A DNA stretch of 64,000 nucleotides from Escherichia coli. GTDB lineage: Bacteria; Pseudomonadota; Gammaproteobacteria; Enterobacterales; Enterobacteriaceae. A program made the translations under genes and the position numbers. The DNA lies in assembly GCF_001677475.2 (NCBI RefSeq), contig NZ_CP015229.1, one strand, 5' to 3'. The number at the start of each line of letters is the position of its first letter. Position 1 is the first letter of the stretch. The notes beneath the pieces were generated by a model. That model was not told the origin of the DNA. It worked only from the letters and a program-made list of their open reading frames with translations, and did no database searches. Below, piece by piece: positions 28,139 to 42,507 of the stretch.

Positions 28139-29371
28139 TTAGTACAGCAGACGGGCGCGAATGGTACCCGGAATAGCTTTCATTGCCTGCAGCGCTTTTT
28201 CGGCAACGTCTTCGTCGGCTTCAATATCAATAACTACATAACCCATCTGGGCGGAAGTTTGCAGATATTGCGCGGCGATGTTGACCCCCTGCTCGGCAAA
28301 AATTTTGTTGAGCGCAGTTAGCACGCCCGGACGGTTTTCGTGGATGTGCATCAGACGACGCCCACCGTGCAGTGGCAGCGAGACTTCCGGGAAGTTCACC
28401 GCAGAGAGCGTTGAGCCATTGTCAGAGTACTTGATCAATTTACCCGCAACTTCCAGGCCGATATTCTCCTGCGCTTCCTGAGTCGAACCGCCAATGTGTG
28501 GCGTCAGAAGAACGTTGTCGAATTCACACAGCGGAGAGGTAAATGGATCGCTATTGGTCGCCGGTTCCGTCGGGAATACGTCGATTGCCGCCCCCGCCAG
28601 ATGTTTGCTCGCCAGCGCGTCACACAGCGCTGGAATATCCACCACAGTACCGCGCGAGGCATTAATTAGCAGCGAGCCGGGCTTCATTAGTGAAATTTCT
28701 TTCGCGCCCATCATATTTTTGGTGGACGGATTCTCTGGTACATGCAGACTCACCACATCGCTCATATTCAGCAGGTCAGAAAGATGCTGTATCTGAGTGG
28801 CGTTGCCTAGCGGCAGTTTGTTTTCAATATCATAAAAGTAAACATACATTCCCAGCGATTCAGCCAGAATGCCCAATTGCGTACCAATATGACCGTAGCC
28901 GATGATACCCAGCTTTTTGCCGCGCGCTTCAAAAGAACCCGCCGCCAGTTTGTTCCACACGCCACGGTGCGCTTTAGCATTGGCTTCCGGCACGCCGCGC
29001 AATAGCAGCAGCAGTTCGCCAATCACCAGCTCCGCAACAGAGCGAGTATTTGAGAACGGTGCGTTAAATACCGGGATACCGCGTTTTGCCGCCGCATCCA
29101 GATCAACCTGGTTTGTTCCGATACAGAAACAGCCAATAGCGACCAGTTTTTCTGCGGCGTTGATCACGTCTTCAGTCAGATGGGTACGGGATCGCAGGCC
29201 GATGAAGTGGGCATCGCGGATGGATTCTTTTAATTGTTCATCATCCAGCGCGCCTTTGTGAAATTCGATGTTGGTGTAACCAGCTGCACGAAGGCTTTCC
29301 AGCGCCTTTTGGTGCACGCCTTCTACCAGCAGAAACTTAATCTTGTCTTTCTCCAGCGATACCTTTGCCAT
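28139..29371 (-). CDS. serA: D-3-phosphoglycerate dehydrogenase, 410 aa
   Basis: ORF 28139..29371; 2-hydroxyacid dehydrogenase motifs and C-terminal ACT domain region. Confidence 0.95.
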   Translation of the reverse strand: MAKVSLEKDKIKFLLVEGVHQKALESLRAAGYTNIEFHKGALDDEQLKESIRDAHFIGLRSRTHLTEDVINAAEKLVAIGCFCIGTNQVDLDAAAKRGIPVFNAPFSNTRSVAELVIGELLLLLRGVPEANAKAHRGVWNKLAAGSFEARGKKLGIIGYGHIGTQLGILAESLGMYVYFYDIENKLPLGNATQIQHLSDLLNMSDVVSLHVPENPSTKNMMGAKEISLMKPGSLLINASRGTVVDIPALCDALASKHLAGAAIDVFPTEPATNSDPFTSPLCEFDNVLLTPHIGGSTQEAQENIGLEVAGKLIKYSDNGSTLSAVNFPEVSLPLHGGRRLMHIHENRPGVLTALNKIFAEQGVNIAAQYLQTSAQMGYVVIDIEADEDVAEKALQAMKAIPGTIRARLLY

Positions 29372-29626
29372 TTACCCAATCCTGTCTTTTGAAATGTTGT
29401 GTGCGGATTTGCGTCCGCCTTTCAACATATCAAAAAATAATATTGCGGCAATATGAACGTTTGCGTCGCGATGTTGAGGAAATATCACGCAAAGGTAATT
29501 ATTGGATGAATATGCTGGTTTAGAGGATTTATTTAGAGCAATCGACAATAGCCAGGTAAAAACGTGACACATGTCACCAAATTTAATGAAGAGAATTTTT
29601 TTAACGGGGGAGGTTCCCCCGTCAGA

Positions 29627-30286
29627 TCATTTCACAATGGTTTTGACACCGTCAGGTGTGCCAATCAGCGCAACGTCCGCGCCACGGTTAGCAAACAAGC
29701 CAACAGTCACCACGCCAGGAATCGCATTTATGGCGTTTTCCATCGCTATCGGGTCAAGGATTTCCATGCCGTGGACGTCGAGGATCACGTTGCCGTTATC
29801 GGTCACCACGCCCTGACGGTATTCCGGACGACCGCCCAGTTTCACCAGCTGGCGCGCCACTGCACTACGTGCCATCGGGATAACTTCTACTGGCAGCGGG
29901 AATTTGCCCAGAATATCAACCTGCTTGGAGGCGTCGGCAATACAGATAAATTTTTCCGCAACCGAAGCAATGATTTTTTCACGGGTCAGCGCCGCGCCGC
30001 CGCCTTTGATCATTTGCATGTGGCCGTTGATTTCATCTGCGCCATCAACGTAGATGCCAAGGCTGTCGACTTCGTTGAGATCAAAAACGTGAATGCCGAG
30101 GCTTTTCAGTTTTTCAGTGGAAGCATCTGAACTGGAAACGGCCCCTTCAATCTGGCCTTTCATTGTACCGAGCGCGTCAATAAAGTGTGCGGCGGTGGAA
30201 CCTGTACCTACACCAACAATGGTGCCGGGCTGAACATACTGAAGTGCCGCCCATCCTACTGCTTTTTTCAATTCATCCTGCGTCAT
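29627..30286 (-). CDS. rpiA: ribose-5-phosphate isomerase A, 219 aa
   Basis: ORF 29627..30322; start at [10 protein letters not shown] (ATG 30286..30284) gives the K-12 length. Confidence 0.9.
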
Positions 30287-30322
30287 GATCGTTTCGCCTG
30301 TGGTATGAAATTTCACACGCAT

Positions 30323-30520
30323 TATACTCTAAATAATTCGAGTTGCAGGAAGGCGACAAGAGAGTGACAAATTCGTCAGGAACGAATTTGCCCAGCCGCA
30401 GGCTGGCCTTCGGTGAGAGACATGGATGTCTCTCATTAATCCCCAGGAGCTTACAGAAGTAAGTGACTGGGGTGAGCGAACGCAGACGCAGCACATGCAA
30501 CTTGAAGTATGACGAGTATA
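30323..30520. repeat. ERIC/IRU element, long form with a ~70-bp internal insertion
   Basis: Contains the ERIC core AAGTAAGTGACTGGGGTGAGCG; collinear with the inverted copy at 42381..42507 except for extra DNA at about 30368-30437. Confidence 0.8.
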
Positions 30521-30566
30521 TACAAAAAAAGCGATTCAGACCCCGTTGGCAAGCCGCGTGGTTAAC

Positions 30567-30770
30567 TCATCCATAAAATATCGCGCAATGGCGGGCATCC
30601 CCTTTCGCCCGGCAAATAAAGCATACAACGGTCTGGGTATGCCGCTCCACGGTGCGAACAGAGGCAATAACGCCACGCCATTCAACATAACCAGGGCGCG
30701 AAGTCGCTAAGCGAAATGCAATAGCGCAAATCCCTGATCTTTTAAGCTGCGCGTTTAACCATTGATACAA
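30567..30770 (-). pseudogene. yqfE: short ORF in the rpiA-argP spacer, possibly the yqfE remnant
   Basis: Only the ORF track (67 aa) and its position; no recognisable domain. Confidence 0.2.
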
Positions 30771-30862
30771 ATGTTACCCACCGACGGCTTCGGTATATGC
30801 AACCTGACACAAAATTGTGTCATAGTGCAGGAAAAAGCATTTACCAGGAGCAGACAACAGCA

Positions 30863-31756
30863 ATGAAACGCCCGGACTACAGAACATTACAGGCACTGGA
30901 TGCGGTGATACGTGAACGAGGATTTGAGCGCGCGGCACAAAAGCTGTGCATTACACAATCAGCCGTCTCACAGCGCATTAAGCAACTGGAAAATATGTTC
31001 GGGCAGCCGCTGTTGGTGCGTACCGTACCGCCGCGCCCGACGGAACAAGGGCAAAAACTGCTGGCACTGCTGCGCCAGGTGGAGTTGCTGGAAGAAGAGT
31101 GGCTGGGCGATGAACAAACCGGTTCAACTCCGCTGCTGCTTTCACTGGCGGTCAACGCTGACAGTCTGGCGACGTGGTTGCTTCCGGCGCTGGCTCCTGT
31201 GTTAGCTGATTCGCCTATCCGCCTCAACTTGCAGGTAGAAGATGAAACCCGCACTCAGGAACGTCTGCGCCGTGGCGAAGTGGTCGGCGCGGTGAGTATT
31301 CAACATCAGGCGCTGCCGAGTTGTCTTGTCGATAAGCTCGGTGCGCTTGACTATCTGTTCGTCAGCTCAAAACCGTTTGCCGAAAAATATTTCCCTAACG
31401 GCGTAACGCGTTCGGCATTATTGAAAGCACCTGTGGTCGCCTTTGACCATCTTGACGATATGCACCAGGCCTTTTTGCAGCAAAACTTCGATCTGCCCCC
31501 AGGCAGCGTACCGTGCCATATCGTTAATTCTTCAGAAGCGTTCGTACAACTTGCTCGCCAGGGCACCACCTGCTGTATGATCCCGCACCTGCAAATCGAG
31601 AAAGAACTGGCCAGCGGTGAATTGATTGACTTAACGCCGGGGCTATTTCAACGCCGGATGCTCTACTGGCACCGCTTTGCTCCTGAAAGCCGCATGATGC
31701 GTAAAGTCACTGATGCGTTGCTCGATTATGGTCACAAAGTCCTTCGTCAGGATTAA
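30863..31756 (+). CDS. argP: LysR-type transcriptional regulator ArgP (IciA), 297 aa
   Basis: ORF 30797..31756; start at [10 protein letters not shown] (ATG 30863); N-terminal LysR HTH. Confidence 0.9.
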
Positions 31757-31959
31757 TCCATCAAATAATGCCTGATAGCACATATCAGGCGTTATCCTCA
31801 CTTCTTTTTGTATTCCTTGAAACACATCACAAAATAGACAAATCTCAGGCGGCAAAAAACGACGTCTGAATGCATTTTTTTTGCTGGAGACAAACCCACG
31901 TAAAAAGCTCACCGTAAGCGCAAATACCCTCATTTTGATTGCGTTTTACGGAGCAAATA

Positions 31960-34104
31960 ATGTCTAAGGTGCAGGAGTGGCAACAGCTTGCCAACAAGGA
32001 ATTGAGCCGTCGGGAGAAAACTGTCGACTCGCTGGTTCAGCAAACCGCGGAAGGGATCGCCATCAAGCCGCTGTATACCGAAGCCGATCTCGATAATCTG
32101 GAGGTGACAGGTACCCTTCCTGGTTTGCCCCCCTACGTTCGTGGCCCGCGTGCCACTATGTATACCGCCCAACCGTGGACCATCCGTCAGTATGCTGGTT
32201 TTTCAACAGCAAAAGAGTCCAACGCTTTTTATCGCCGTAACCTGGCCGCCGGGCAAAAAGGTCTTTCCGTTGCGTTTGACCTTGCCACCCACCGAGGCTA
32301 CGACTCCGATAACCCGCGCGTGGCGGGCGACGTCGGCAAAGCGGGCGTTGCTATCGACACCGTGGAAGATATGAAAGTCCTGTTCGACCAGATCCCGCTG
32401 GATAAAATGTCGGTTTCGATGACCATGAATGGCGCAGTACTACCAGTACTGGCGTTTTATATTGTCGCCGCAGAAGAGCAAGGTGTTACACCCGATAAAC
32501 TGACCGGCACCATTCAAAACGATATCCTCAAAGAGTATCTTTGCCGCAACACCTATATTTACCCGCCAAAACCGTCAATGCGTATTATCGCAGACATCAT
32601 CGCCTGGTGTTCCGGCAACATGCCGCGATTTAATACCATCAGTATCAGCGGTTACCATATGGGTGAAGCGGGTGCCAACTGCGTGCAGCAGGTAGCATTT
32701 ACGCTCGCTGATGGGATTGAGTACATCAAAGCAGCAATCTCCGCCGGGCTGAAAATTGATGACTTCGCTCCTCGCCTGTCGTTCTTCTTCGGCATTGGCA
32801 TGGATCTGTTTATGAACGTCGCCATGTTGCGTGCGGCACGTTATTTATGGAGCGAAGCGGTCAGTGGATTTGGCGCACAGGATCCGAAATCACTGGCGCT
32901 GCGTACCCACTGCCAGACCTCAGGCTGGAGCCTGACTGAACAGGATCCGTATAACAACGTTATCCGCACCACCATTGAAGCACTGGCTGCAACGCTGGGC
33001 GGTACTCAGTCACTGCATACCAACGCCTTTGATGAAGCGCTTGGTTTGCCTACCGATTTCTCAGCACGCATTGCCCGCAATACCCAGATCATCATTCAGG
33101 AAGAATCAGAACTCTGCCGCACCGTCGATCCACTGGCCGGATCCTATTACGTTGAGTCGCTGACCGATCAAATCGTCAAACAAGCCAGAGCTATTATCCA
33201 ACAGATCGACGAAGCCGGTGGCATGGCGAAAGCGATCGAAGCAGGTCTGCCAAAACGAATGATCGAAGAGGCCTCAGCGCGCGAACAGTCGCTGATCGAC
33301 CAGGGCAAGCGTGTCATCGTTGGTGTCAACAAGTACAAACTGGATCACGAAGACGAAACCGATGTACTTGAGATCGACAACGTGATGGTGCGTAACGAGC
33401 AAATTGCTTCGCTGGAACGCATTCGCGCCACCCGTGATGATGCCGCCGTAACCGCCGCGTTGAACGCCCTGACTCACGCCGCACAGCATAACGAAAACCT
33501 GCTGGCTGCCGCTGTTAATGCCGCTCGCGTTCGCGCCACCCTGGGTGAAATTTCCGATGCGCTGGAAGCCGCTTTCGACCGTTATCTGGTGCCAAGCCAG
33601 TGTGTTACCGGCGTGATTGCGCAAAGCTATCATCAGTCTGAGAAATCGGCCTCCGAGTTCGATGCCATTGTTGCGCAAACGGAGCTGTTCCTTGCCGACA
33701 ATGGTCGTCGCCCGCGCATTCTGATCGCTAAAATGGGCCAGGATGGGCACGATCGCGGCGCAAAAGTGATCGCCAGCGCCTATTCCGATCTCGGTTTCGA
33801 CGTAGATTTAAGCCCGATGTTCTCTACACCTGAAGAGATCGCCCGCCTGGCAGTAGAAAACGACGTTCACGTAGTGGGCGCATCCTCACTGGCTGCCGGT
33901 CATAAAACGCTGATCCCGGAACTGGTCGAAGCGCTGAAAAAATGGGGACGCGAAGATATCTGCGTAGTCGCCGGTGGCGTCATTCCGCCGCAGGATTACG
34001 CCTTCCTGCAAGAGCGCGGCGTGGCGGCGATTTATGGTCCAGGTACACCTATGCTCGACAGCGTGCGCGACGTACTGAATCTGATAAGCCAGCATCATGA
34101 TTAA
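31960..34104 (+). CDS. scpA: methylmalonyl-CoA mutase (sleeping beauty mutase), 714 aa
   Basis: ORF 31939..34104; start at MSKVQEWQQ (ATG 31960); C-terminal B12-binding DxHxxG motif ([10 protein letters not shown]). Confidence 0.9.
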
Positions 34105-42354: not shown

Positions 42355-42380
42355 GTCTCTTGTCCTGTATCGTCGGGCCT

Positions 42381-42507
42381 TATACTCGTCATACTTCAAG
42401 TTGCATGTGATGCGTCTGCGTTCGCTCACCCCAGTCACTTACTTATGTAAGCTCCTGGGGATTCACTCTCTTGTCGCCTTCCTGCAACTCGAATTATTTA
42501 GAGTATG
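42381..42507. repeat. ERIC/IRU element, short ~127-bp form, in the pgk-fbaA intercistronic region
   Basis: Contains both ERIC core strings (ATGTAAGCTCCTGGGGATTCAC and the reverse complement of AAGTAAGTGACTGGGGTGAGCG); inverted relative to the copy at 30323..30520. Confidence 0.85.

Follow-up and report, generated by a model that had tools for sequence, protein, structure and literature searches.

The spacer between rpiA and argP in the window, by which we mean the whole 64,000-nucleotide stretch of Escherichia coli DNA analysed here, is in all probability (about 0.9) a non-coding deletion scar holding the pseudogene yqfE. This identification is carried by direct observation of the homologies, of the junctions between the joined pieces, of the distribution of intact and scarred loci among genomes, and of extra lesions in the window and in other lineages. 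The preliminary description, made from the letters of the sequence, had considered the spacer a decayed locus and advised against calling it a functional gene, and this view is supported both by the existence of an intact homologue and by the additional lesions of the window's allele, namely a 45-bp deletion, the loss of a start codon and a nonsense codon. The element itself is already known, being the annotated pseudogene yqfE of K-12, present here as a more degraded allele beside a long-form ERIC element. The explicit reconstruction of an ancestral four-gene block at this site may be unpublished, though it concerns routine pangenome variation.

The gene order in the window is serA-rpiA-[ERIC]-[spacer]-argP-scpA, as part of the E. 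coli chromosome. The rpiA coding sequence lies on the minus strand at 29627..30286 (219 aa from the RefSeq-style start) and the argP (iciA) coding sequence on the plus strand at 30863..31756. The spacer, 30521-30862 (342 bp), extends from the first base past the ERIC terminal repeat (30496-30520) to the last base before the argP ATG (30863), confirming both edges of the interval that had been placed between the ERIC copy and argP. The rpiA-argP spacers of the window and K-12 are collinear, and the spacer is the positional counterpart of yqfE (b2915); the earlier statement that K-12 annotates a small gene or pseudogene here is borne out by the MG1655 record, which has yqfE (b2915) as a pseudogene at the aligned site. 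Divergence in rpiA between the window and other strains is only 0.6-0.9%. The rpiA ATG is conserved and PGAP gives the gene as 660 nt in the aligned genomes. The mechanical rpiA ORF (29627-30322) starts 12 codons further upstream, giving 231 vs 219 aa, and reaches into the stretch adjoining the ERIC; the shorter start is the choice of the RefSeq genomes. An Rfam scan of 29300-32000 at E ≤ 1 returned two sub-threshold chance matches only, one of them on the ERIC, and a terminator scan of 30200-31000 returned one terminator-like hairpin, which is a hairpin of the ERIC insert.

The 67-codon minus-strand ORF to which attention had been drawn is present at 30567..30770 with a TTG start, and it lacks a domain as described, its 67-aa product having no Pfam match even at E ≤ 10. 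The same 3.5 kb contains 52 ORFs with 25 codons or more, and those antisense to rpiA and argP reach 188 and 125 codons, so an ORF of 67 codons is not above chance expectation. The yqfE frame in the window appears as a 50-codon ORF at 30536..30688, and the 67-codon ORF lies one base off that frame, out of frame with the regulator remnant described below. In K-12 the 67-codon frame has only 40 codons, with its stop inside the 45 bp that are absent from the window; the 45-bp deletion took out this stop codon and the frame is therefore open in the window. Judged from the sequence, the 67-codon ORF is an accidental out-of-frame by-product of the 45-bp deletion and is not a gene. The locus is thus decayed, as proposed, but the ORF that had been taken for the remnant is not in the remnant's frame, which is that of 30536..30688. 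When the 67-aa product was searched against 5.8 billion proteins, ten matches of high identity were obtained, all of them E. coli or Shigella hypothetical proteins of at most 99 aa, several being frameshift fusions with the yqfE frame. No Pfam domain was found in these ten proteins and no homologue outside this locus was found among the 5.8 billion. According to the preliminary description, it would be contradicted by an intact, conserved homologue comparable in length and subject to purifying selection; ORFs of similar length occur at this same locus only, in E. coli and Shigella, where they are disrupted in differing ways by lineage. The search for a longer intact homologue, also proposed there, did find one for the remnant, a 298-aa LysR-type regulator encoded between rpiA and argP.

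A protein search with the 76-aa product of K-12 yqfE (76 codons; MHFAQRVRALVVLNGVALLPQFACKQGLANGELVRLFAPWSGIPRPLYALFAGRKGMPAIARYFMDELTTRLANGV) returned short E. coli and Shigella fragments only, and one 92-aa variant among them led to a contig with a full-length, frameshift-riddled LysR-type gene next to rpiA. With the DNA of this contig as the query, 248 of 5426 complete E. coli genomes (4.6%) were seen to have an intact four-gene block separating rpiA from argP. The block consists of the LysR-type regulator (298 aa, 897 nt; Pfam HTH_1, PF00126, and LysR_substrate, PF03466) on the rpiA strand and three genes divergent from it, encoding an FMN-dependent NADH-azoreductase (AzoR-like, 209 aa; Pfam Flavodoxin_2), a DUF1471 protein (86 aa; YdgH/BhsA-like) and a ferric/ferredoxin-reductase-like flavoprotein (441 aa; Pfam Ferric_reduct, FAD-binding and NAD-binding). 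In these strains 55 bp separate the regulator stop from the start codon of rpiA, and 70 bp the reductase stop from that of argP. The block is found at the identical position, with varied decay, in Escherichia whittamii, Escherichia sp. E1V33, Escherichia sp. MOD1-EC7003 and a Pseudocitrobacter MAG. The surviving blocks are themselves in decay. The length of the reductase gene varies among E. coli, with 1326 nt in some (locus L007 4296-5621) and 1020 nt in others, and in E. whittamii, E1V33 and MOD1-EC7003 this gene is in fragments. MOD1-EC7003 also has a frameshifted regulator gene, and the Pseudocitrobacter locus has no azoreductase.

Residues 14-76 of K-12 YqfE are 100% identical over 63 residues to residues 236-298 of the intact regulator (WP_000568126.1 / WP_021557186.1, with divergent azoreductase), and the remnant descends directly from the last 63 codons of this gene. 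Compared with the intact LysR-type regulator, about 235 of 298 codons are gone (250 in the window), there is no DNA-binding domain and the effector domain is incomplete. The 76-aa product (K-12/O145) matches positions 151-207 only of the 209 in the LysR_substrate profile, at 24-28 bits, and the 50-aa ORF of the window has no Pfam match. The HTH_1 domain, residues 4-63 of the intact regulator, is absent from both the window and K-12 yqfE, in which homology begins at residue 236. With no HTH domain and about a quarter of the effector domain, the remnant does not qualify as a LysR-type regulator, and since the DNA-binding and complete effector domains are missing it cannot act as one. It has the properties of a yqfE pseudogene, corresponding to b2915 in orthologous position and sequence and being truncated and disrupted relative to a longer intact homologue. 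The window shares with K-12 yqfE (b2915) the site, the regulator-derived 3′ end, the azoreductase-fragment junction and the filler described below; it differs in lacking 45 bp, in having TTG for ATG and TAG at codon 5, and hence in having no 76-codon ORF, and the ERIC adjoining the spacer is absent from the K-12 locus. MG1655 was used as the K-12 reference. The record CP026085.1, labelled DH5alpha, was set aside for this purpose as it differs from MG1655 here at several positions: over the 192-nt remnant, for instance, 6 differences separate NZ_CP026085.1 from the intact reference and none separate MG1655 from it. The yqfE/argP allele of this record also occurs in the non-K-12 strains Z142 and FORC_082, and its chromosome is 4.83 Mb. 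It does not look K-12-derived at this locus.

To map the pieces of the scar, the spacers of K-12 and the window were each compared by blastn with an intact locus. The K-12 spacer comprises a regulator segment (193 nt), an azoreductase segment (58 nt), an unmatched segment (65 nt) and argP leader (59 nt). In the window, the regulator 3′ remnant (the yqfE frame) occupies 148 nt on the minus strand, 30536..30683, and retains 48 codons and the stop out of 298, aligning to the last 193 nt of the gene minus 45. The alignment places the junction of the 45-bp in-frame internal deletion, in which QFACKQGLANGELVR was lost, at 30660..30661 (+/-1 nt). Next to the remnant, at 30684..30741, is the 58-nt fragment of the azoreductase 3′ end, in sense on the plus strand and with 83-93% identity to intact azoR-like genes; its sense translation is TQPGRELAERNALAQIPDL in K-12 vs KTQPGRELAEQNALAQIPEL in the intact gene. 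The ATG and first 13 codons of yqfE in K-12 are this azoreductase fragment in antisense, and the K-12 ORF is thus an accidental chimera. Alignment to K-12 shows that in the window this ATG has become TTG (30719..30721, minus strand) and that a TAG nonsense codon at 30707..30709 (minus strand) stands in the yqfE frame in place of the K-12 CAG (Gln5), so that the frame reads ...ALLHFA*RLRALVMLNGVALLPLFAPWSG....

The 65-nt filler, 30742..30806, is specific to scar-bearing genomes and has no match inside the intact block: the score of its local alignment to the block was within the shuffle range, and blastn against all retrieved loci gave no match. A sensitive species-wide search found it at this locus only, once each in 5176 of 5426 genomes. 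Together with the 248 intact-block genomes these account for 5424 of 5426, a clean split of E. coli into scarred and intact. The remainder of the spacer, 30807..30862, is argP leader or promoter-proximal DNA on the plus strand, includes TGTCATAGT, and is shared with the intact-block strains. A 32-bp imperfect palindrome at 30798-30829, TGCAACCTGACACAA-AA-TTGTGTCATAGTGCA with a perfect 8+8 core (TGACACAA/TTGTGTCA), spans the junction of filler and argP leader and overlaps a possible argP -10. Its left arm is missing in intact-block strains, where two core positions differ, and one base of the core is broken in each of the B2 strains and 24A16CRGN010; it could be an operator or could have arisen by chance.

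From these pieces, the following course of events may be reconstructed. An ancestral Escherichia would have had the four-gene block between rpiA and argP, with the regulator on the rpiA strand and the other three genes divergent. About 3 kb would then have been lost in the lineage leading to ~95% of present E. coli, leaving the terminal 193 nt of the regulator gene, a 58-nt piece from the azoreductase 3′ end, the 65-nt filler and the argP leader. In K-12-type alleles, a chance ATG in the antisense azoreductase fragment opens the 76-codon chimeric ORF called yqfE. The window allele has decayed further, through the 45-bp deletion, the change of ATG to TTG and that of Gln5 to TAG, and the ERIC is inserted beside it, in front of rpiA. 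The scar probably had a single origin and then spread through recombination, and the retained flanks would persist because of the rpiA and argP promoters.

Variation within the scar was assessed in anchored alignments of 17 scar alleles, a small and non-random sample. Nucleotide diversity (pi) among these alleles was 0.035 in the regulator remnant, 0.032 in the azoreductase fragment, 0.044 in the filler and 0.004 in the argP leader, indicating that the regulator remnant is as variable as the non-ORF scar and about nine times more variable than the argP leader. In the 63 regulator codons of the 17 alleles, 19 synonymous vs 10 non-synonymous substitutions were counted, a significant synonymous excess (p about 5e-6) which alone would suggest purifying selection. 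The excess was not read in this way because of four further observations: the density of variants at synonymous sites is three times that of the adjacent scar (40% vs 13%, p = 2e-4); the non-synonymous density, 7%, is not significantly below that of the scar (p = 0.15); nine of the synonymous variants also occur in intact alleles, from E. coli, E. whittamii or E1V33; and the variants private to the 45-bp-deleted alleles are, in a small sample, 3 non-synonymous and 0 synonymous. The simplest reading would be that the excess is old polymorphism from the time of the functional gene, with a younger deletion haplotype recombined into those backgrounds; the excess is the main caveat to the pseudogene reading. 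The remnant is not a conserved small protein, its frame being disrupted by several deletions of independent origin, by frameshifts, and by mutations affecting starts and stops. A literature search on yqfE and b2915 yielded nothing relevant.

That the block was lost rather than gained is a strong inference from the sequences, since the scar holds fragments of two block genes and the outgroups have the block at the same site, which would make the block ancestral and the scar derived. The reverse, a recent insertion of the block into a minority of strains with the common spacer as the ancestral empty site, would fit the rarity of the block in E. coli (4.6%) but is extremely improbable: pieces of two of the block's genes, with sharp junctions, could not be present at an empty site, and three further Escherichia lineages as well as Pseudocitrobacter carry the block at this very location. 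Since argP is adjacent and also of the LysR family, the remnant could in principle be a partial duplicate of it; this was rejected, its probability being vanishingly small, because YqfE and ArgP share only family-level similarity (28% over 39 residues), as against 100% over 63 residues with the accessory regulator. A functional small protein encoded by yqfE or by the 67-codon ORF is also very improbable. About half of E. coli genomes have the ATG-initiated 76-codon ORF intact; it is often called by PGAP and has the synonymous excess in its regulator-derived codons, yet it is a chimera whose first 13 codons are antisense to another gene, it holds just the last ~57 positions of a 209-position domain, and the remaining half of the species, the window included, has it deleted, shortened or interrupted by a stop. 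The 67-codon frame for its part has no domain, has homologues at the same locus only and is 40 codons long in K-12, and the PGAP calls vary by genome among minus strand, plus strand and none. There is likewise only a slim chance that in K-12-type strains the deletion made a new chimeric 76-codon gene which was then kept as a micro-protein, for example one interfering with the oligomerisation of a LysR-type regulator; were this so, the synonymous excess would be real purifying selection and the window allele a secondary loss.

A further possibility, which complements the explanation of the spacer as a deletion scar, is that it is non-gene DNA kept as regulatory sequence, with the rpiA promoter and upstream region in the regulator 3′ end and the argP promoter in the leader and filler, and with selection on the expression of rpiA and argP having set the boundaries of the deletion. 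We consider this conceivable though on balance unlikely. In its favour, rpiA is transcribed toward lower coordinates, and its promoter must be in or just below the remnant. A TATAAT hexamer at 30321..30326 (minus strand), 34 nt upstream of the rpiA ATG, is the presumptive rpiA -10, and it belongs to a motif, TTTTTGTATATAAT, that is kept from E. coli out to Pseudocitrobacter while its flanks diverge. The stops of the intact block are just 55 bp (regulator to rpiA) and 70 bp (reductase to argP) from the neighbouring ATGs, and the argP leader is ~9 times less diverse than the scar; within this leader, TGTCATAGT is a possible extended -10. Retention of promoter-bearing flanks would explain the deletion endpoints. 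Against the regulatory reading, some tens of bp suffice for a core promoter, the 193-nt remnant is as diverse as the rest of the scar and tolerates deletions of 24, 45 and ~89 bp, 66 genomes tolerate an ERIC between the TATAAT and all that is upstream of it, and a consensus promoter scan of 30200-31000 found no sigma-70-like site. In a PhoB ChIP-seq study, argP was rejected as a PhoB target (PMC10294691). If the spacer has any residual role, a cis-regulatory one would be the most plausible.

Decay of the scar has continued in various ways across strains. The 45-bp segment was detected in 2711 of 5426 genomes, a number that includes the 248 intact ones, so roughly half of the scar-bearing genomes are without it. 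A 43-nt probe carrying the TTG and TAG changes of the window was matched at 99% identity or more in 421 genomes and with 1-2 differences in 326 more (up to 747), and PGAP annotates nothing under the matches. The looser class is mixed: O157:H7 strain 472, which was sampled separately, has a near-window allele with the TAG kept, while N96 (95.3% probe match) belongs to a length class like that of 24A16CRGN010, which has the TTG change only. Strain 24A16CRGN010 also has a ~89-bp deletion removing the regulator/azoreductase junction, 2013C-4282 has an additional 24-bp deletion, and frameshifted versions of yqfE are numerous in the protein database. The reduced-genome strain DGF-298 is without yqfE (PMC10652928), which speaks for its being dispensable.

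The main import of this is annotation hygiene, since the spacer should hold no protein-coding gene and pipelines label it in five ways. On the minus strand PGAP uses three names here, "LysR substrate-binding domain-containing protein", "type 2 periplasmic-binding domain-containing protein" and "hypothetical protein"; in other genomes the outcome is a plus-strand "hypothetical protein" (e.g. CFSAN018748) or nothing. The reconstruction is also a worked example of the loss of an accessory redox/detoxification cassette, with a chimeric ORF arising by accident in the scar, and it leaves the general understanding unchanged. A plus-strand ORF of 66 codons runs across the scar (CFSAN018748 locus 339-539; MG1655 locus 2498-2698) and holds the azoreductase C-terminal TQPGRELAERNALAQIPDL in sense; some genomes carry a PGAP hypothetical-protein annotation for this ORF, one more spurious call at the locus.

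The ERIC described as adjoining the spacer is genuine, with the ERIC2 primer sequence exact at 30457-30478 and that of ERIC1R, with 3 mismatches, at 30435-30456; the sequences of these two standard primers appear jointly in 246 papers. The element, a long form, spans 30323..30520 including the duplicated target, a TATA located 37-40 nt upstream of the rpiA ATG. The conserved core, the 25-nt terminal inverted repeats and the occurrence of multiple intergenic copies (a median of 6 matching places per E. coli genome) are all those of an ERIC. Its core, terminal inverted repeats and multi-copy nature are shared with canonical ERIC/IRU; the difference is an internal insert of 71 nt at 30367..30437, with perfect hairpins at 30368-30390 and 30414-30435. 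This insert is missing from the canonical copy at 42.4 kb in the window and from canonical same-site copies in other strains. The copy at 42.4 kb (approximately 42376-42500) is of canonical length, lies in the opposite orientation and is ~98% identical outside the 71-nt insert. Long forms of ERIC with internal inserts were reportedly described earlier, by Wilson and Sharp in 2006. An ERIC at this site, the rpiA-side junction, was present in only 66 of 5426 genomes, and the exact ERIC combination of the window in none of the 5426 complete genomes. Among same-site copies, several strains have the canonical form of ~127 bp, and E2348/69 and AST215 have the 71-nt insert plus a further 78 nt. The insertion lies exactly at the conserved TTTTTGTATATAAT motif (30321-30330, 30516-30522), and the duplicated TATA regenerates TATAAT on the rpiA side; the sequence upstream of the presumptive rpiA -10 is shifted by ~190 bp, with the ERIC end in its place. 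In MOD1-EC7003 this same site holds a canonical ERIC (locus L013 6895-7040), beside the full-length frameshifted regulator gene of that strain.
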